From a virus (Duplodnaviria; Heunggongvirae; Uroviricota; Caudoviricetes), in IMG/VR virus record IMGVR_UViG_2541047945_000001: 21,088 bases of DNA. The stretch is one strand, 5' to 3'. Each line of letters starts with the position of its first letter. The stretch's first letter is position 1. Below the pieces are notes generated by a model. The model ran no database searches, was not told the DNA's origin, and saw only the letters and a program-made list of their open reading frames with translations. The position numbers and the translations under genes are program-made. Positions 1 through 8,247 of this stretch are shown one piece after another.

Positions 1-215
1 AGGTAATACACCGTAAGAGCTGGAAAAACCGTGCAGAAGTGGAACTGGCCACACTCACGTGGGTGGACTGGTATAACAATCGACGATTGCTGGAAAGGCT
101 GGGCCATACTCCTCCGGCAGAAGCAGAAAAAGCTTATTATGCTTCCATCGGAAACGATGATCTGGCAGCCTGAGTTCACAGATAAAATACTCTCCAGGAA
201 ACCCGGGGCGGTTCA
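1..215 (+). mobile_element. 3' end of an IS3-family insertion sequence (IS629/IS1203-like), truncated by the window edge; terminal inverted repeat ends ...CCCGGGGCGGTTCA at 215
   Basis: Frame-3 translation of 3..170 gives a transposase C-terminus (…ELATLTWVDWYNNRRLLERLGHTPPAEAEKAYYASIGNDDLAA, stop 171-173). Reverse complement of 171-215 reads TGAACCGCCCCGGGTTTCCTGGAGAG…, which matches my memory of the IS629 terminal repeat. Lambda O sequence resumes at 216. Confidence 0.75.
3..173 (+). CDS. IS3-family transposase (orfB-type), C-terminal fragment, 5' partial
   Basis: Open frame from the window edge to TGA at 171-173; WVDWYNNRRL motif typical of the IS3-family integrase-core C-terminus. Confidence 0.7.
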   Translation, partial: VIHRKSWKNRAEVELATLTWVDWYNNRRLLERLGHTPPAEAEKAYYASIGNDDLAA

Positions 216-509
216 GAGCGTAATGTGGCAGATCTCGATGATGGTTACGCCAGACTATCAAATATGCTGCTTGAGGCTTATTCAGGCGCAGATCTGACCA
301 AGCGACAGTTTAAAGTGCTGCTTGCCATTCTGCGTAAAACCTATGGGTGGAATAAACCAATGGACAGAATCACCGATTCTCAACTTAGCGAGATTACAAA
401 GTTACCCGTCAAACGGTGCAATGAAGCCAAGTTAGAACTCGTCAGAATGAATATTATCAAGCAGCAAGGCGGCATGTTTGGACCAAACAAAAACATCTCA
501 GAATGGTGC

Positions 510-597
510 ATCCCTCAAAACGAGGGAAAATCCCCTAAAACGAGGGATAAAACATCCCTCAAATTGGGGGATTGCTATCCCTCAAAACAGGGGGACA
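510..597 (+). repeat. ori-lambda iterons: four direct ~18-20 bp repeats (O-binding sites) inside the O coding sequence
   Basis: ATCCCTCAAAACGAGGGA / AATCCCCTAAAACGAGGGA / CATCCCTCAAATTGGGGGA / TATCCCTCAAAACAGGGGGA read directly at ~510-597. Confidence 0.9.
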
Positions 598-650
598 CAA
601 AAGACACTATTACAAAAGAAAAAAGAAAAGATTATTCGTCAGAGAATTCT
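598..650 (+). promoter_or_regulatory. AT-rich DNA-unwinding region of ori-lambda next to the iterons
   Basis: ACAAAAGACACTATTACAAAAGAAAAAAGAAAAGATTATTCG immediately 3' of iteron 4, as in lambda ori. Confidence 0.8.
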
Positions 651-1057
651 GGCGAATCCTCTGACCAGCCAGAAAACGACCTTTCTGTGGTGAAACCGGA
701 TGCTGCAATTCAGAGCGGCAGCAAGTGGGGGACAGCAGAAGACCTGACCGCCGCAGAGTGGATGTTTGACATGGTGAAGACCATCGCGCCATCAGCCAGA
801 AAACCGAATTTTGCAGGGTGGGCTAACGATATCCGCCTGATGCGTGAACGTGACGGACGTAACCACCGCGACATGTGCGTGCTGTTCCGCTGGGCATGCC
901 AGGACAACTTCTGGTCCGGTAACGTGCTTAGCCCGGCCAAACTCCGCGACAAGTGGACCCAGCTCGAAATCAACCGTAACAAGCAACAGGCAGTCGTGAC
1001 AGCCAGCAAACCAAAACTCGACCTGACAAACACAGACTGGATTTACGGGGTGGATCT

Positions 1058-1759
1058 ATGAAAAACATCGCCGCACAGATGGTTAACTTTGACCGTGAGC
1101 AGATGCGTAGGATCGCCAACAACATGCCGGAACAGTACGACGAAAAGCCGCAGGTACAGCAGGTAGCGCAGATCATCAACGGTGTGTTCAGCCAGTTACT
1201 GGCAACTTTCCCGGCGAGTCTGGCTAACCGTGACCAGAACGAACTGAACGAAATCCGCCGCCAGTGGGTTCTGGCTTTCCGGGAAAACGGGATCACCACA
1301 ATGGAACAGGTTAACGCAGGAATGCGCGTAGCCCGTCGGCAGAATCGACCATTTCTGCCATCACCCGGGCAGTTTGTTGCATGGTGCCGGGAAGAAGCAT
1401 CCGTTATCGCCGGACTGCCAAACGTCAGCGAGCTGGTTGATATGGTTTACGAGTATTGCCGGAAGCGAGGCCTGTATCCGGATGCGGAGTCTTATCCGTG
1501 GAAATCAAACGCGCACTACTGGCTGGTTACCAACCTGTATCAGAACATGCGGGCCAATGCGCTTACTGATGCGGAATTACGCCGTAAGGCCGCAGATGAG
1601 CTTGTCCATATGACTGCGAGAATTAACCGTGGTGAGGCGATCCCTGAACCAGTAAAACAACTTCCTGTCATGGGCGGTAGACCTCTAAATCGTGCACAGG
1701 CTCTGGCGAAGATCGCAGAACTCAAAGCTAAGTTCGGACTGAAAGGAGCAAGTGTATGA
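1058..1759 (+). CDS. P: Replication protein P (DnaB helicase loader)
   Basis: 233-aa ORF (MKNIAAQMVNFDREQMRRIANNMPEQYDEKPQVQQVAQIING…) collinear with lambda P; ATGA overlaps with O and ren. Confidence 0.95.
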   Translation: MKNIAAQMVNFDREQMRRIANNMPEQYDEKPQVQQVAQIINGVFSQLLATFPASLANRDQNELNEIRRQWVLAFRENGITTMEQVNAGMRVARRQNRPFLPSPGQFVAWCREEASVIAGLPNVSELVDMVYEYCRKRGLYPDAESYPWKSNAHYWLVTNLYQNMRANALTDAELRRKAADELVHMTARINRGEAIPEPVKQLPVMGGRPLNRAQALAKIAELKAKFGLKGASV

Positions 1760-2046
1760 CGGGCAAAGAGGCAATTATTCATTACCTGGGGACGCATAAT
1801 AGCTTCTGTGCGCCGGACGTTGCCGCGCTAACAGGCGCAACAGTAACCAGCATAAATCAGGCCGCGGCTAAAATGGCACGGGCAGGTCTTCTGGTTATCG
1901 AAGGTAAGGTCTGGCGAACGGTGTATTACCGGTTTGCTACCAGGGAAGAACGGGAAGGAAAGATGAGCACGAACCTAATTTTTAAGGAGTGTCGCCAGAG
2001 TGCCGCGATGAAACGGGTATTGGCGGTATATGGAGTTAAAAGATGA
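1756..2046 (+). CDS. ren: Ren protein (confers resistance to Rex exclusion)
   Basis: 96-aa ORF MTGKEAIIHYLGTHNSFCAPDVAALTGATVTSINQAAAKMARAGLLVIEGK… matches lambda Ren in length and sequence. Confidence 0.9.
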   Translation: MTGKEAIIHYLGTHNSFCAPDVAALTGATVTSINQAAAKMARAGLLVIEGKVWRTVYYRFATREEREGKMSTNLIFKECRQSAAMKRVLAVYGVKR

Positions 2047-2070
2047 CCATCTACATCACTGAGCTAATAA

Positions 2071-2103
2071 CAGGCCTGCTGGTAATTGCAGGCCTTTTTA
2101 TTT
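2071..2103 (+). terminator. Rho-independent terminator (tR2-like) between ren and ninB
   Basis: CAGGCCTGC-tggtaatt-GCAGGCCT stem-loop followed by TTTTTATTT. Confidence 0.75.
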
Positions 2104-2119
2104 GGGGGAGAGGGAAGTC

Positions 2120-2560
2120 ATGAAAAAACTAACCTTTGAAATTCGATCTCCAGCACATCAGCAAAACGCTATTCACGCGGTACAGCAAATTCTTCCAGAC
2201 CCAACCAAACCAATCGTAGTAACCATTCAGGAACGCAACCGCAGCTTAGACCAGAATCGAAAGCTTTGGGCTTGCCTTGGTGACGTCTCTCGTCAGGTTG
2301 AATGGCATGGTCGCTGGCTGGATGCAGAAAGCTGGAAGTGTGTGTTTACCGCAGCATTAAAGCAGCAGGATGTTGTTCCTAACCTTGCCGGGAATGGCTT
2401 TGTGGTAATAGGCCAGTCAACCAGCAGGATGCGTGTAAGCGAATTTGCGGAGCTATTAGAGCTTATACAGGCATTCGGTACAGAGCGTGGCGTTAAGTGG
2501 TCAGACGAAGCGCGACTGGCTCTCGAATGGAAAGCGCGATGGGGAGATCGGGCTGCATGA
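2120..2560 (+). CDS. ninB: NinB (Orf family recombination mediator)
   Basis: MKKLTFEIRSPAHQQNAIHAVQQILPDPTKPIVVTIQERNRSLDQNRKLWACLGD… (146 aa) matches lambda NinB. ATG at 2120 chosen over the upstream extension of ORF 2102. Confidence 0.92.
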   Translation: MKKLTFEIRSPAHQQNAIHAVQQILPDPTKPIVVTIQERNRSLDQNRKLWACLGDVSRQVEWHGRWLDAESWKCVFTAALKQQDVVPNLAGNGFVVIGQSTSRMRVSEFAELLELIQAFGTERGVKWSDEARLALEWKARWGDRAA

Positions 2561-3084
2561 CTATCAAATCAAATACGCCAGCACACGACAAGGACTGCTG
2601 GCAAACGCCGCTTTGGCTTTTTGATGCACTGGATATTGAGTTTGGATTCTGGCTGGATTCGGCAGCGAGCGACAAAAATGCTCTGTGCGCTCACTGGCTA
2701 ACTGAGGACGACGACGCGCTCAATTCTGAGTGGGTAAGCCACGGTGCAATCTGGAATAACCCACCGTACAGCAATATCAGGCCGTGGGTGGAAAAAGCCG
2801 CTGAGCAGTGTATACAACAGCGACAGACGGTAGTGATGCTTGTGCCAGAGGATATGTCTGTCGGATGGTTCAGCAAGGCTCTGGAGAGTGTTGACGAAGT
2901 TCGTATTATCACTGATGGACGGATTAATTTTATCGAACCATCGACAGGGCTGGAGAAGAATGGAAACAGCAAAGGCTCCATGCTGCTGATTTGGCGACCG
3001 TTCATCAGTCCTCGACGGATGTTTACTACCGTATCCAAAGCGGCATTGATGGCGATCGGGCAGGGCGTCAGGAGGGCTGCATGA
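2557..3084 (+). CDS. Phage DNA N6-adenine methyltransferase (Dam-like)
   Basis: [25 protein letters not shown]… with the NPPY catalytic motif (IWNNPPYSN); start overlaps the ninB stop (ATGA), stop overlaps the ninE start. Confidence 0.85.
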
Positions 3085-3257
3085 GACGACAGCGACGAAG
3101 CATCACCGACATAATCTGCGAAAACTGCAAATACCTTCCAACGAAATGCTCCAGAAATAAACGCAAGCTAATCCCAAAAGAATCTGACGTAAAAACCTTC
3201 AATTACACAGCCCACCTGTGGGATATCCGGTGGCTAAGATATCGTGCGAGGAAATGA
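3081..3257 (+). CDS. ninE: NinE
   Basis: [22 protein letters not shown]…[26 protein letters not shown] (58 aa) matches lambda NinE; ORF track 2991 is an upstream extension. Confidence 0.85.
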
Positions 3258-3259
3258 CA

Positions 3260-3601
3260 ATGGATTATTCACAGTTAAGTGATTTTGAAATTAACAGAAT
3301 GGTAGGAGACATAATTTTTAAAGGCCTTTGGGCAAGTAAACCGGAAACATCAGGGAATAACACCAACAAATGGTATTACGGAAATGCTGATACAACTTTT
3401 GAGCCATTAAATCATTTGCCTGACTACTGCAATGATCCGAGCGCTTCATGGCCGATTATTGAGAAATACAGGATTTCTATCTTAGACCAGTTAACTGAAT
3501 GGTGTGTGGATGCAAAAGGCGTAAGCCCAATATTTGATACCAGACCTCTCCGCGCCGCCATGATTGTCTTTCTCCTGATGCAGGAGGCCAATAATGCTTA
3601 G
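3260..3601 (+). CDS. NinX-like conserved hypothetical protein (function unknown), hydrophobic C-terminus
   Basis: [37 protein letters not shown]…[17 protein letters not shown] between ninE and ninF, the position of ninX in P22-type nin regions; AGGA RBS before ATG 3260 (alternative ATG at 3254). Confidence 0.6.
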
Positions 3602-3788
3602 CCCATCTCAATCCCTTCAATACCTGAAAGAAAGCATAGAGCGGGCTTCAATGTGCACAGAGTGGATTCTATCTAGGTTTAGCGCATACAGAAGATTGCC
3701 GGTAAAGGGCATGCCAAGCAAGTCGATGCTGCATATGCAAAAGAATGCGCGCTGGAAGGTATGGCGAGAACACAGGTTATGTGGCTAA
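3594..3788 (+). pseudogene. Chimeric ORF: ninF 5' end (first ~20 codons) running into unrelated sequence; probably a recombination scar, not a functional gene
   Basis: [18 protein letters not shown]… matches the lambda NinF N-terminus, then loses all resemblance (no Cys-rich NinF core). Confidence 0.5.
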
Positions 3789-3811
3789 AAGAGGGGGTTA
3801 TTAAGGCGTGA
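3677..3811 (+). pseudogene. 3' remnant of a DLP12 ybcO-like gene (frame 2), ending in an overlap with the rusA start
   Basis: Frame-2 translation …[29 protein letters not shown] resembles the YbcO C-terminus as I recall it; in-frame TAG at 3674-3676 closes it upstream; stop 3809-3811. Confidence 0.45.
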
Positions 3812-4170
3812 ATACCTACAGCATCACATTACCCTGGCCTCCGAGCAATAATCGCTATTACCGCCATAATCGCGGGCGCACGCACGTCAGCGCAGAGGGG
3901 CAGGCATACCGCGATAACGTCGCCCGAATCATTAAAAACGCAATGCTGGATATCGGCCTGGCTATGCCTGTGAAAATCCGCATTGAGTGCCACATGCCGG
4001 ATCGCCGTCGCCGTGACCTGGATAATCTGCAAAAAGCCGCTTTTGACGCACTCACTAAAGCAGGTTTCTGGCTGGATGATGCTCAGGTCGTTGATTACCG
4101 CGTTGTGAAGATGCCTGTTACCAAAGGTGGGAGGCTGGAACTGACCATCACCGAAATGGGGAATGAATGA
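3808..4170 (+). CDS. rusA: RusA Holliday-junction resolvase
   Basis: 120-aa [49 protein letters not shown]… essentially identical to E. coli DLP12 RusA; GTG start. Confidence 0.95.
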
Positions 4171-4307
4171 TGTTTGAGTTTAATATGGCAGAACTTCTTC
4201 GCCACCGCTGGGGGCGTCTGCGCTTATATCGTTTCCCCGGTTCTGTTTTGACCGATTACCGAATACTGAAGAATTACGCCAAAACCCTGACAGGAACAGG
4301 AGTATGA
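4167..4307 (+). CDS. ylcG: YlcG-like small protein (46 aa, function unknown)
   Basis: [46 protein letters not shown], overlapping the rusA stop; same position as ylcG in DLP12. Below the ORF-track length cutoff. Confidence 0.7.
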
Positions 4308-4392
4308 AGTCAGAGATAACAATCAACTAATACTGTTTTGTTGATTTTTGCTTGTAATTGGCGTTCTGGTCTGATTTTTGTGGAGTAAGTTG

Positions 4393-4776
4393 ATGCGTGA
4401 TATTCAGATGGTTCTTGAGCGTTGGGGTGCGTGGGCGGCTAATAATCATGAAGATGTGACCTGGTCGTCCATTGCCGCCGGTTTTAAGGGATTAATTCCT
4501 TCAAAAGTAAAATCTCGCCCGCAATGTTGTGACGATGACGCGATGATCATTTGCGGGTGCATGGCCCGTCTGAAAAAGAACAACAGCGATTTACACGATT
4601 TATTAGTAGATTATTATGTATGTGGTATGACATTCATGTCACTGGCAAGTAAGCATTGCTGCTCGGATGGTTATATCGGGAAAAGGTTACAGAAGGCTGA
4701 GGGCATAATTGAAGGGATGTTAATGGCATTAGATATCCGGTTAGATATGGATATCGTTGCTAATAATTCTAATTGA
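4393..4776 (+). CDS. quuD: Late-gene antiterminator Q (DLP12 QuuD / phage-21-82 class, not lambda Q)
   Basis: [62 protein letters not shown]… matches DLP12 QuuD; GGAG RBS 7 nt before ATG 4393. Confidence 0.9.
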
Positions 4777-4830
4777 TATGCAATTGTTTACTAAAAGTTA
4801 TTAAAAATGGGGCGTGGAAACGCCCCCAAA
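4777..4830 (+). promoter_or_regulatory. Candidate late promoter (pR'-equivalent) and qut region just downstream of Q, with GC hairpin GGGGCG-tggaaa-CGCCCC (4809-4826)
   Basis: Position by analogy with lambda pR'/qut; TTGATA…TTTACT…TATTAAAAAT motifs and a hairpin are visible, but the exact -35/-10 assignment is uncertain. Confidence 0.3.
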
Positions 4831-4912
4831 ATAAAGGGTAATATATAACAGAAGGTTTATATAGTAAGAAGCAAGGTAGTGCTTCTAAAGGAAGTGGCTT
4901 GAGGGCTCCACT

Positions 4913-4953
4913 TATATGTTGCGGAGGCAAAGCCTCCCGCAACATATCTTTTT
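4913..4953 (+). terminator. Rho-independent terminator, + strand (candidate tR' equivalent), in the Q-nmpC intergenic region
   Basis: TATATGTTGCGGAGGC-AAA-GCCTCCCGCAACATAT stem-loop followed by CTTTTT. Confidence 0.6.
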
Positions 4954-4964
4954 CGTAAGTCAGA

Positions 4965-6047
4965 TTAGAACTGATAAACCAGACCTACAGCGACGATGTC
5001 GTCGGTATCAATACCAGCTGTTTTGGTAAACTTACTATCGTCAATTAAGTTGATTTTGTAATCAACAAAAGTAGACATGTTTTTATTAAAGTAGTAAGTA
5101 GCACCGACATCGACATACTTGACTAAGTCTCGGTCACCATGAACACCAAGGTCTTTACCTTTTGACTGAAGGTAAGCAACAGATGGGCGCAGACCGAAGT
5201 CAAACTGATATTGTGCTACTGCTTCAAAGTTTTGTGCTTTGTTTGCAATATGGTTATTACCAAAAACGGTCATATTCTGAGTTTCAGAATATGTGGTAGC
5301 CAGATAGATATTGTTCGCATCATATTTCAGGCCTGCAGCCCATACTTCCGCATTTTTGCCGGAGGCATTGAATTTGCTCTTACCATAGGCGACCTGACCG
5401 TCAGTGCGATCTGATTTAGCATAGGTTGCACCCACGCCGAATCCTTCATACTCATAAGTAGTGGAGAAACCGAAACCATCACCATTGGCTTCAGTTACGT
5501 CAGTGCGGTCATTTTTACCCTGATACTGAGCAGCAAAGTTCAGGCCATCGACCAGACCAAAGAAGTCGTTGTTACGATAAGTTGCAACACCAGTAGTGCG
5601 ACCAGTCATGAACACATCTGTTTGGGTCCAGGTATCACCACCGAATTCTGGCAGAACGTCAGTCCACGCACCGATGTCGTATGCTACACCGTAGTTACGG
5701 CCGTAATCGATGGAGCCGTAATCACCAAATTTCAGGCCTGCAAATGCAAGACGGGTTTTGTCTTTGGAAGAACCTTGAGATTCAGCACGGTTGCCTTTGA
5801 ATTCATATTCCCACTGACCGAAACCAGTCAGTTGATCGTTGATTTGGGTTTCACCTTTGAAGCCAAGACGGGCATAAGTAGTATCACCATCATCTGCATC
5901 ATTAGAGGAGAAGTAGTGCTTGGCATTAACTTTCCCGTATAGATCCAGCTTGTTACTGTCTTTATTATAAATTTCAGCTGCCTGAGCAGACATCGCCATC
6001 AGTACTGATGCAGCTACAGCAGAAATTGCCACTGTTAATTTTTTCAT
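4965..6047 (-). CDS. nmpC: Outer-membrane general porin, NmpC/Lc (OmpC/OmpF family), intact with signal peptide
   Basis: Minus-strand ORF; [23 protein letters not shown] signal peptide then [16 protein letters not shown]… and C-terminal …VAVGLVYQF with terminal Phe. Start set at the MKK ATG, not the 20-codon upstream extension of the ORF track. Confidence 0.92.
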
Positions 6048-6473
6048 TGTACGCCCTTTTTTTGAACTATTATTAAAAAATGATGTCACTGCGCGATAAA
6101 TATTCATCTAATCAATGTGATTATTTCAAGATGTAAGTTTTAGTTTCTCATTTAATTTGTGAAGTAGATCTCTATTTTTATCTGAACCTTTTCTATCTAA
6201 TCCTATTCATGGCTCTTGTCTGAACAAAAATAAATCTATTAGCTAATTTATATTAATGGCACTTATTTATAAGTGCTCTATAATTCTTTAGCTTAATTTA
6301 AACAAACTAAAAATAACATCGGAAATTATTAACTGATTATTTGTTGAAGTTTTCTTATGTATTTGTGGTGGTGTTTTGAACACTCGGTGGCATTCTCACA
6401 AATATCATTTAGTAGTTTACGTACGTAAAAAATTGGTTATGCTGTTAAGAGTGGTTACTTCGTCACACAGCTT

Positions 6474-6506
6474 AAACCCGCCGTCGAGCGGGTTTTTCCA
6501 TTTTTT
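6474..6506 (+). terminator. Rho-independent terminator-like hairpin, + strand, ~130 bp upstream of the holin gene
   Basis: AAACCCGC-cgtcga-GCGGGTTT stem followed by TTCCATTTTTT. Confidence 0.55.
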
Positions 6507-6635
6507 GAGTCTCGATATTAGCTGATAACCCAATACCTGAGTTATTCACTGACTCCGAATCTGTTACGTTTCTGCCTTTATTGCGATACGTAATATCCCC
6601 TTAATTTACACCCGCTTTGTCTGCGAGGTGGGGTT

Positions 6636-6851
6636 ATGAAATCCATGGATAAGTTAACAACGGGTGTCGCCTATGGCACCTCAGCAGGTAGTGCCGGTTA
6701 CTGGTTTTTACAGCTGCTCGATAAAGTCACGCCCTCACAGTGGGCAGCAATAGGTGTGCTGGGTAGCCTGGTATTTGGCCTGCTGACGTACCTGACAAAC
6801 CTTTATTTCAAGATTAAAGAAGATAAGCGCAAGGCTGCGAGAGGTGAATAA
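6636..6851 (+). CDS. essD: Holin, phage-21 S21 pinholin class
   Basis: 71-aa [74 protein letters not shown], close to S21 / DLP12 EssD. Confidence 0.92.
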
Positions 6852-7348
6852 TGCCTCCATCATTACGAAAAGCCGTTGCTGCTGCTATTGGTGGCGGAGC
6901 AATTGCTATAGCATCAGTGTTAATCACTGGCCCAAGTGGTAACGATGGTCTGGAAGGTGTCAGCTACATACCATACAAAGATATTGTTGGTGTATGGACT
7001 GTATGTCACGGGCATACAGGAAAAGACATCATGCTCGGTAAAACGTATACCAAAGCAGAATGCAAAGCCCTCCTGAATAAAGACCTTGCCACGGTCGCCA
7101 GACAAATTAACCCGTACATCAAAGTCGATATACCGGAAACAATGCGCGGCGCTCTTTACTCATTCGTTTACAACGTGGGTGCTGGCAATTTCAGAACATC
7201 GACGCTTCTTCGCAAAATAAACCAGGGCGATATCAAAGGCGCATGTGATCAGCTACGTCGCTGGACATATGCTGGCGGTAAGCAATGGAAAGGTCTCATG
7301 ACTCGTCGTGAGATTGAGCGTGAAATCTGTTTGTGGGGTCAGCAATGA
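6851..7348 (+). CDS. rrrD: SAR (signal-anchor-release) endolysin, lysozyme family, R21-like
   Basis: 165-aa ORF with Gly/Ala-rich N-terminal SAR domain ([20 protein letters not shown]) then a lysozyme domain; start overlaps the holin stop. Confidence 0.9.
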
Positions 7349-7806
7349 ACAGAGTAACCGCGATTATCTCCGCTCTGGTTATCTGCATCATCGTCTGCCT
7401 GTCATGGGCTGTTAATCATTACCGTGATAACGCCATTACCTACAAAGCCCAGCGCGACAAAAATGCCAGAGAACTGAAGCTGGCGAACGCGGCAATTACT
7501 GACATGCAGATGCGTCAGCGTGATGTTGCTGCGCTCGATGCAAAATACACGAAGGAGTTAGCTGATGCGAAAGCTGAAAATGATGCTCTGCGTGATGATG
7601 TTGCCGCTGGTCGTCGTCGGTTGCACATCAAAGCAGTCTGTCAGTCAGTGCGTGAAGCCACCACCGCCTCCGGCGTGGATAATGCAGCCTCCCCCCGACT
7701 GGCAGACACCGCTGAACGGGATTATTTCACCCTCAGAGAGAGGCTGATCACTATGCAAAAACAACTGGAAGGAACCCAGAAGTATATTAATGAGCAGTGC
7801 AGATAG
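7345..7806 (+). CDS. rzpD: Rz i-spanin (inner-membrane spanin)
   Basis: [26 protein letters not shown]… with N-terminal TM helix and coiled-coil-like remainder; overlaps the endolysin end. Confidence 0.9.
7565..7747 (+). CDS. rzoD: Rz1 o-spanin lipoprotein, nested in the +1 frame of Rz
   Basis: [52 protein letters not shown]…: lipobox LVVVGC and proline-rich body, wholly inside Rz. Confidence 0.85.
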
Positions 7807-7837
7807 AGCTGCCCATATCGATGGGCAACTCATGCAA

Positions 7838-8131
7838 TTATTGTGAGCAATACACACGCGCTTCCAGCGGAGTATAAATGCCTAAAGTAATAAAACCGAG
7901 AAATCCATTTACGAATGTTTGCTGGGTTTCTGTTTTAACAACATTTTCTGCGCCGCCACAAATTTTGGCTGCATCAACAGTTTTCTCCTGTCCAATTCCC
8001 GAAACGAAGAAATGATGGGTGATGGTTTCCTTTGGTGTTACTGCTGTCGGTTTGTTTCCAACAGTAAACGTCTGTTGAGCACATCCTGTAATAAGCATTG
8101 CCAGAGCGGCAGAAAACAACATTTTTTTCAT
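7838..8131 (-). CDS. bor: Bor outer-membrane lipoprotein (serum-resistance moron)
   Basis: MKKMLFSAALAMLITGCAQQTFTVGNKPTAVTPKETITHHFFVSGIGQEKTVDAAKICGGAENVVKTETQQTFVNG…ARVYCSQ (97 aa) matches lambda Bor; AGGA RBS before ATG 8131; ORF track 8179 is an upstream extension. Confidence 0.92.
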   Translation of the reverse strand: MKKMLFSAALAMLITGCAQQTFTVGNKPTAVTPKETITHHFFVSGIGQEKTVDAAKICGGAENVVKTETQQTFVNGFLGFITLGIYTPLEARVYCSQ

Positions 8132-8247
8132 CTTATTATCCTGCATTGTTAAAAACGGCAGAATCCTATGTGACAACAATTAAACGATAGTTAAATGGAT
8201 TGATGAAAATTAAAACTATATAGGTGGATGCTCAGCCTATTGGAGGA

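Follow-up and report, generated by a model that had tools for sequence, protein, structure and literature searches.

A probable fossil scar of two successive illegitimate joins linking ninF and ybcO fragments in a lambda-like prophage

How many recombination events lie behind the 218 bases (3594–3811) at which a nin-type gene block gives way to a DLP12-type block in this phage DNA, and does the short open reading frame found there have any work to do? Lambdoid mosaicism is classically recognised by abrupt module joints without parental homology that cluster in the non-essential nin region, and mosaic ‘novel joints’ formed by illegitimate recombination have been described for the nin regions of HK97/HK022, HK620 and P22 by Hendrix, Juhala, Clark, Casjens and colleagues. 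The window, by which we mean the whole 21,088 nt stretch of DNA that was analysed (IMG/VR record IMGVR_UViG_2541047945_000001), had been read in a first-pass annotation as holding a nin/DLP12-type module junction with a single breakpoint at about 3650–3700, leaving behind a 5′ fragment of ninF and a 3′ fragment of ybcO. The junction and the two gene fragments (termed ninF′ and ybcO′) were borne out, both similarities lying far beyond chance. The single breakpoint was not, since two boundaries were found (termed J1 and J2) with 65 bases of a third origin between them (Table 1). The segment is very probably the fossil scar of two successive illegitimate joins and not a working element.

Table 1. 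Window positions of the features at and around the joint, with the match or closest relative that defines each.
Feature	Position	Strand	Evidence or relationship
O (truncated), P, ren, ninB	216–2560		lambda, 98.3%
Dam methylase, ninE	2551–3254		Stx1 phage SH2026Stx1, 96.6%
ninE, ninX, ninF′	3070–3656		ST64T, 94.2%
ninX (DUF2591, P22 NinX family)	3260–3601	+	Pfam PF10765, 62.1 bits; PGAP ‘NinX family protein’
Chimeric ORF	3594–3788	+	ATG start, 64 codons: ninF′ codons 1–21, then spacer, then ybcO′ out of frame
ninF′ (5′ fragment)	3594–3656	+	codons 1–21 of P22/ST64T-type ninF
J1 (ninF/spacer joint)	3649–3657	.	most likely 3656/3657; base-by-base comparison with ST64T, lambda and SH2026Stx1
Spacer of third origin	3657–3721	.	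65 bases; read as what remains of the left end of an insert (moron) of 2.8 kb
J2 (spacer/ybcO′ joint)	3721/3722		
ybcO′ (3′ fragment)	3722–3811	+	YbcO/DUF1364 residues 68–96 and stop; pseudogene
CGATG	3724–3728	.	5-base microhomology at J2, common to the Stx1-phage insert and PhiR34_1/Turner-type ybcO
GAGGGGG, Shine-Dalgarno-like for rusA	3791–3797	+	read from sequence; function putative
rusA (Holliday junction resolvase)	3808–4170	+	Pfam PF05866, 82 bits, residues 9–114 of 120; PGAP rusA
ylcG	4167–4307	+	PGAP ylcG
Q (QuuD-type antiterminator)	4393–4776	+	Pfam PF06530, 181 bits; PGAP quuD
ybcO′, rusA, ylcG, quuD	3722–5006		DLP12, 97.4%
Porin, lysis, bor	5040–8185		DLP12, 91.2%

The left-hand module ends with ninX, its last intact gene, whose stop overlaps the ATG of ninF′. 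Bases 3500–3656 align with the ninX-ninF region of phage ST64T at 95% identity (149/157 bases, E 4e-69), and all ninX-ninF-type matches stop at 3656, both in phages (ST64T, P22, HK544 and Sf101) and in E. coli genomes, where the matches ending at this base carry the annotations ‘protein NinF’ and ‘NinX’. Like ST64T ninF, the fragment lies after ninE-ninX and has a start that overlaps the ninX stop, and the likeness extends over the first 21 codons. The N-terminus had been assigned to lambda NinF; a NinF N-terminus is present (21 codons), but it is of the P22/ST64T type. Lambda NinF begins VIDQNRSYEQ (its translation starts VIDQNRSYEQESVERALTC / VIDQNRSYEQESVERALTCANCGQ), unlike the N-terminus in the window, which the translation of ST64T NinF identifies as the ninX-linked type.

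Lambda has no ninX, and lambda DNA matches this part of the window only in ninE (3088–3254, 94%) and in 29 bases of ninF (3628–3656, 83%). Without ninX and with a different NinF N-terminus, lambda was the wrong choice of reference for the left side. The description of the upstream genes as lambda-like fits O, P, ren and ninB; the Dam methylase gene and ninE are instead of Stx type, and the run from ninE through ninX to ninF′ is of P22/ST64T type. Judged by these alignments, the ‘lambda-type’ nin region is itself a mosaic drawn from at least three sources.

On the right side, all ybcO-rusA-type matches begin at 3722, whether obtained by megablast, by tblastn (residue 14 of the 42-residue query) or from E. 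coli genomes (query position 163). Phages PhiR34_1 and Turner have the closest ybcO alleles, which show complete identity to the window from base 3722 on and no relationship to it before that base. A YbcO C-terminus had been claimed for a frame spanning 3677–3811. The C-terminus is there, but homology starts only at 3722 (residue 68 of 96), and of the two in-frame TAG triplets upstream (3674–3676 and 3680–3682) the second falls inside the claimed frame, which is open from 3683. No start codon precedes the homologous part. Pfam PF07102 aligns with ybcO′ over profile positions 62–92 of 92 at 17.7 bits, below the cut-off of 29.9; K-12 YbcO reaches 144.8 bits with the same profile. Consistent with this, the PGAP/RefSeq annotation of the source genome and of a sister strain labels 3722–3811 ‘DUF1364 domain-containing protein, incomplete, missing N-terminus’.

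The ybcO′ stop had been described as overlapping the rusA GTG as in DLP12, and precisely this arrangement is present: the TGA (3809–3811) overlaps the GTG (3808–3810) in the same 4-base GTGA overlap as K-12 DLP12 ybcO/rusA. The Shine-Dalgarno-like GAGGGGG lies inside ybcO′, 10 bases upstream of the GTG. With a full-length PF05866 match, rusA is the first intact gene of the right-hand module, and the DLP12-like character proposed for the downstream genes holds for the whole of 3722–8185, at the higher and then the lower of the two identities in Table 1. The arrangement therefore resembles ybcO-rusA-ylcG-quuD of DLP12 in E. coli K-12, as well as orf96-rus of phage 82 (X92588), whose orf96 matches the same 29 YbcO residues. 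Unlike in DLP12 and phage 82, only the last 29 of the 96 YbcO codons are present, without a start and with stops upstream, and they are preceded by ninX-ninF′ rather than by ybcN-ninE.

A sharp switch in identity had been predicted, and it is seen in comparisons with phages that carry either an intact ninF or an intact ybcO. Specifically, identity of the ST64T type (94–95%) ends at 3656, and identity of the DLP12/PhiR34_1 type (97–99%) starts at 3722. J1 is placed within a range of positions because the last 8 bases of the ninF side are only partly matched. J2 lies 65 bases from J1, and here the alignment can be read directly: SH2026Stx1 has ...AAAACGATG followed by AGG, the ybcO of PhiR34_1 has ...TTTTGTCGATG followed by CTGC, and the window has ...AAGTCGATGCTGC.

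A check for microhomology at the switch point, which the first-pass annotation had recommended, returned CGATG at J2, and 5 bases is a typical length for microhomology. Alleles of ninF and ybcO give no alignment across 3640–3760, and CGATG is all that is shared at J2. At 3722–3723 the window has GT, as in ybcO, where the Stx1 phages have AA, so that a crossover inside CGATG alone would need extra substitutions to give the product observed. Because the parents lack extended homology at the joint, the join would have been illegitimate or mediated by microhomology. The earlier proposal of an illegitimate or short-homology exchange thus agrees with the lack of extended parental homology, but the joint is double and contains third-source DNA, and the event itself is not captured by the window.

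Had ninF and ybcO been joined by one illegitimate crossover at about 3650–3700, the 65 bases should be diverged ninF or diverged ybcO. The proposed interval does include J1, and both gene fragments are real. However, bases 3657–3721 match ninF of ST64T and lambda, and likewise four ybcO alleles, only at the random level, whereas the flanks are 94–100% identical. Furthermore, Stx1 phages have these 65 bases at 88% identity but continue on the right with a different sequence. We regard a single crossover as exceedingly improbable.

The distribution of the spacer indicates where it came from. When 50,697 phage records were searched by sensitive blastn with 3650–3730, the spacer appeared in two contexts only: within the complete junction in 27 records, and in the Stx1 phages SH2026Stx1 and AU6Stx1, which account for four records. 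The alignment of 3628–3728 with SH2026Stx1 (L004:3001–3101) has 88% identity. An exact-pattern scan of IMG/VR recovered 117 spacer loci, all of which fall into two classes. In class A (81 loci), a P22-type ninF N-terminus is followed by the spacer and then by ybcO′-rusA; in class B (36 loci), a lambda-type ninF N-terminus is followed by the spacer and then by AT-rich foreign DNA, and codon 4 of the ninF remnant is TAA in most copies. Patterns that excluded both known contexts found nothing in IMG/VR or in JGI metagenomes. Exact matches to an 18-mer, sought in one genome per GTDB species, came from one E. coli contig and, presumably by chance, from one Bacteroidia MAG.

A break like J1 is also present in the class B Stx1 phages, where it marks the end of lambda homology. 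In SH2026Stx1, this homology runs through ninE-ninF, halts at L004:3021 (ninF codon ~16) and returns at L004:5857, a point that corresponds to the very end of lambda ninF and the beginning of ninG. From this interruption and return, the spacer corresponds to the left end of an insert of ~2.8 kb within ninF. The insert bears a 590-residue ORF on the opposite strand that matches no Pfam or NCBIfam family. The window thus shares with the ninF moron of SH2026Stx1 and AU6Stx1 the same break in ninF and, at 88% identity, the following 65–72 bases. In contrast to the window, those phages have the lambda-type ninF N-terminus, and their insert runs for 2.8 kb before the 3′ end of ninF and ninG resume.

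The survival of the spacer in two unrelated contexts might be explained if it had a function in cis, for example as a small RNA, a terminator, a promoter or a protein-binding site, and the part of it that was not fixed by the search pattern contains just one variable site (3708). One variable site in 25 unbiased bases, however, is not distinguishable from the flanks, and the 88% conservation between contexts is no better than that of the adjacent ninF remnant. Predicted RNA folding of 3640–3815 is weaker than that of shuffled controls (z +1.37; 189 of 200 shuffles fold at least as well), there are no Rfam matches at threshold across the whole window, and no promoter- or terminator-like sites were found in 3600–3810. 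A cis-acting role for the spacer is accordingly most unlikely. When class A is compared with class B in the ninF frame, the spacer has 3 synonymous and 5 nonsynonymous differences (read by eye from the alignment), and a minus-strand ORF of 34 codons in the spacer region differs between contexts at ~8 of 33 residues; these differences suggest selection in neither frame.

The chimeric ORF itself, which was correctly reported as an ATG-initiated frame (64 aa), raises the question of function more directly. Its ATG sits within the stop region of ninX, and its end lies 2 bases short of the rusA Shine-Dalgarno sequence and 19 bases short of the rusA GTG. It could in principle be a functional new small protein, or it could be kept open to support RusA synthesis through termination-reinitiation coupling. 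This placement between ninX and rusA would suit such a role, as would the finding that the ORF is uninterrupted in each of 80 class A loci from IMG/VR; the stop is kept as TAA or TGA, and one locus has an in-frame expansion of 6 codons. RefSeq also calls it ‘protein ninF’ in phages ev207 and ev099.

Several observations nevertheless make a functional product unlikely. The ORF has a pN/pS of 0.56 in the class A loci (11 nonsynonymous and 5 synonymous variable sites), which is higher than the values for ninX (0.18), rusA (0.20) and Q (0.26) in the same loci. The chimeric ORF therefore evolves under relaxed constraint, and we judge a pN/pS of 0.56 from so few sites to be compatible with neutrality. 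With only 16 variable sites, the lack of nonsense changes in the 80 loci is uninformative, as by a rough estimate such an outcome would be expected about half the time; weak selection may nonetheless act. In addition, most copies in the Stx1 context carry the TAA at codon 4, and profile searches of Pfam and NCBIfam returned no family match for the chimera.

The RefSeq label is misleading and unjustified, because the NinF domain is absent. The Pfam NinF model PF05810 spans residues 20–44, and true ST64T NinF scores 52 bits, whereas the chimera has no match at E≤1. Unlike the NinF proteins of P22/ST64T and lambda, it lacks the zinc-ribbon core, retaining only the first Cys (residue 21) of CxxC...CxxC. 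The 64-codon product is not a NinF protein.

Translation of the chimera is likely because the ninF start is retained, and the ORF is probably a translated by-product that begins at a ninF start coupled to the ninX stop. It is also conceivable that ribosomes slip by −1 into the ybcO frame at low level at A_AAG (3740–3743), which would bring back the ancestral GTGA stop-start overlap. It is very unlikely that the ORF has been co-opted, whether as a translated leader that sets RusA expression or as a newborn basic protein of 64 residues with its own function. If this were true, a recombination scar would have been recruited to function in a widespread phage lineage.

A fossil scar left by two joins can be accounted for by the following history. 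First, a foreign cassette (moron) of ~2.8 kb would have entered ninF of a lambdoid phage at J1 and replaced codons ~22 onward, a state in which SH2026Stx1 and AU6Stx1 may still be found. Second, the first ~65–72 bases of the cassette would have been joined at J2, beside CGATG, to ybcO codon 68 of a phage of the DLP12/phage 82 type. This step would have removed the rest of the cassette together with lambda-type ninG(rap)-ninH-Q, and brought in ybcO′-rusA-ylcG-Q-porin-lysis. Such a product would keep the final 90 bases of ybcO and with them the ribosome-binding region of rusA, and it is plausible that a joint at this position survived because this region was kept. The hybrid would be viable because NinF and YbcO are dispensable and RusA replaces Rap as the junction resolvase. 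Lysogeny and homologous recombination in the conserved flanks could then have spread the joint.

We infer the order of J1 before J2 by parsimony only: in class B the insert is flanked by both halves of ninF, as an insertion would leave it, whereas the reverse order would produce this arrangement only by coincidence. None of the 117 IMG/VR loci combines a P22-type ninF N-terminus with the full insert. The proposed history therefore also requires one or more additional homologous exchanges within the shared AAGAAAGC...GGGCTTCA stretch.

This is an old joint, both fixed and common, and it is tolerated by phages that have been deposited as complete genomes. From end to end, 3000–4400 is present at 97.9–100% identity in 27 phage records, which represent 21 named phages and include mEp332, ev207, ev017, 2G7b, PhiR11_1 and several ‘Lambda_ev’ isolates; for mEp332 and PhiR11_1 the recorded host is E. 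coli K-12. Continuous identity to a single phage across 3500–3900 had been named as an outcome that would speak against a junction. Read literally, these 27 records provide it, but they share the same old joint. Among complete E. coli genomes, 584 of 5426 (~11%) carry the joint, counted as coverage of at least 80% of 3560–3830 at 96–100% identity.

The locus shares with known lambdoid novel joints an abrupt identity switch between phages, the lack of parental homology and a location in the non-essential nin region. The swap of analogous genes is also shared, with rusA standing in for ninG(rap) at the equivalent map position. Unlike the usual examples, this joint interrupts genes instead of falling at a boundary between them, and it is double, enclosing 65 bases from a third source.

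DLP12-type lysis and terminase modules have been shown experimentally to be exchangeable with lambda through relaxed homologous recombination and to function in lambda (De Paepe et al., 2014; PMC3945230). Relaxed homologous recombination of this kind was probably how the joint, once made, became widespread. Flanking homology is required for the exchanges with lambda, whereas no more than 5 bases are shared at the joint, and a separate illegitimate process must therefore have made it.

A literature search found general papers on mosaicism and nothing specific to this joint. It is an ordinary lambdoid scar, known in kind, whose ybcO fragment had already been annotated as a pseudogene. Since mosaic joints of the nin region are a textbook feature, it has little importance beyond bookkeeping, and it stands out slightly only in that a single scar of 218 bases records two illegitimate events. 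The layered order of ninF, insert remnant and ybcO connects an insert that Stx1 phages carry today with lambda-like phages from commensal E. coli, and the joint can be used as a lineage marker for the prophage family. A prophage of E. coli MMC-J-0105 that adjoins ybhC matches the window over the full 21 kb at 100% identity.

The 65-base spacer of the window (3657-3721) has as its source the left end of an insert in the ninF gene of Stx1 phages. This insert, which is 2.8 kb in length, splits ninF at about 3022-5856 in the sequence of Stx1 phage SH2026Stx1 (L004). It carries a long hexanucleotide microsatellite, (TCTATT)n, at approximately L004 5560-5670, and a 590-residue ORF for which neither a Pfam nor an NCBIfam match was found.

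Lambda NinF begins with a GTG codon (VIDQNRSYEQ...), and its first ~10 codons are completely unlike those of P22/ST64T NinF, whereas the two types are homologous thereafter. This N-terminal switch constitutes a further mosaic joint, one that lies within ninF itself. The type of N-terminus present goes with the absence or presence of ninX. Also, in one IMG/VR contig of class A (loci with a P22-type ninF N-terminus, the spacer and ybcO'-rusA), the TCAATCCCT motif is expanded in tandem by 18 bases at the equivalent of about window 3610-3625, in the ninF' N-terminus; the reading frame is kept, giving a chimeric ORF of 70 codons (…SLQSLQSLQY…).

A palindrome beside J2, the right joint between spacer and ybcO' (3721/3722), is confined to the ybcO allele of the PhiR34_1/Turner type. 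In contrast, DLP12 and phage 4A7 carry TGGATATGCA at this position.

Features of the window and of related phage sequences
Feature	Sequence	Coordinates	Strand	Remarks
Transposase C-terminus of IS3-family insertion sequence	window	39-173	+	
Dam-family N6-adenine methyltransferase	window	2497-3084		Pfam Dam, 220 bits
N-terminal switch within ninF	window; lambda (L001)	3594-3627; 4270-4297		
Perfect 10-base palindrome, TGCATATGCA	window	3730-3739		a few bases right of J2
OmpC/NmpC-type porin gene	window	4965-6107	minus	intact
bor/iss-type lipoprotein gene	window	7838-8179	minus	PGAP: 'increased serum survival lipoprotein Iss'
590-residue ORF in ninF insert	SH2026Stx1 (L004)	3480-5252	minus	

The Dam methylase gene, whose start region overlaps ninB, occupies the place of ninC-ninD in lambda. 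Together with ninE (window 2551-3254), it is 96.6% identical to SH2026Stx1.

The window opens within the terminal part of an insertion sequence of the IS3 family (1-218) that truncates the lambda-type O gene (225-1061), such that the O ORF begins at about residue 22 of lambda O. In E. coli MMC-J-0105, from which the window derives, the prophage adjoins ybhC and retains int and xis. However, everything between int/xis and O is absent (red, N, cI, cro and cII), and the prophage is therefore defective. Strain LC-1302-2020 carries the same insertion sequence but in the opposite orientation, and its int gene is truncated.

The porin gene comprises 380 codons in the ORF list, which uses an upstream ATG, versus 361 codons by PGAP. 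Its homologue in the DLP12 prophage of K-12, nmpC, is instead interrupted by IS5. The bor/iss region exhibits ~95% identity to lambda and ~91% to DLP12.
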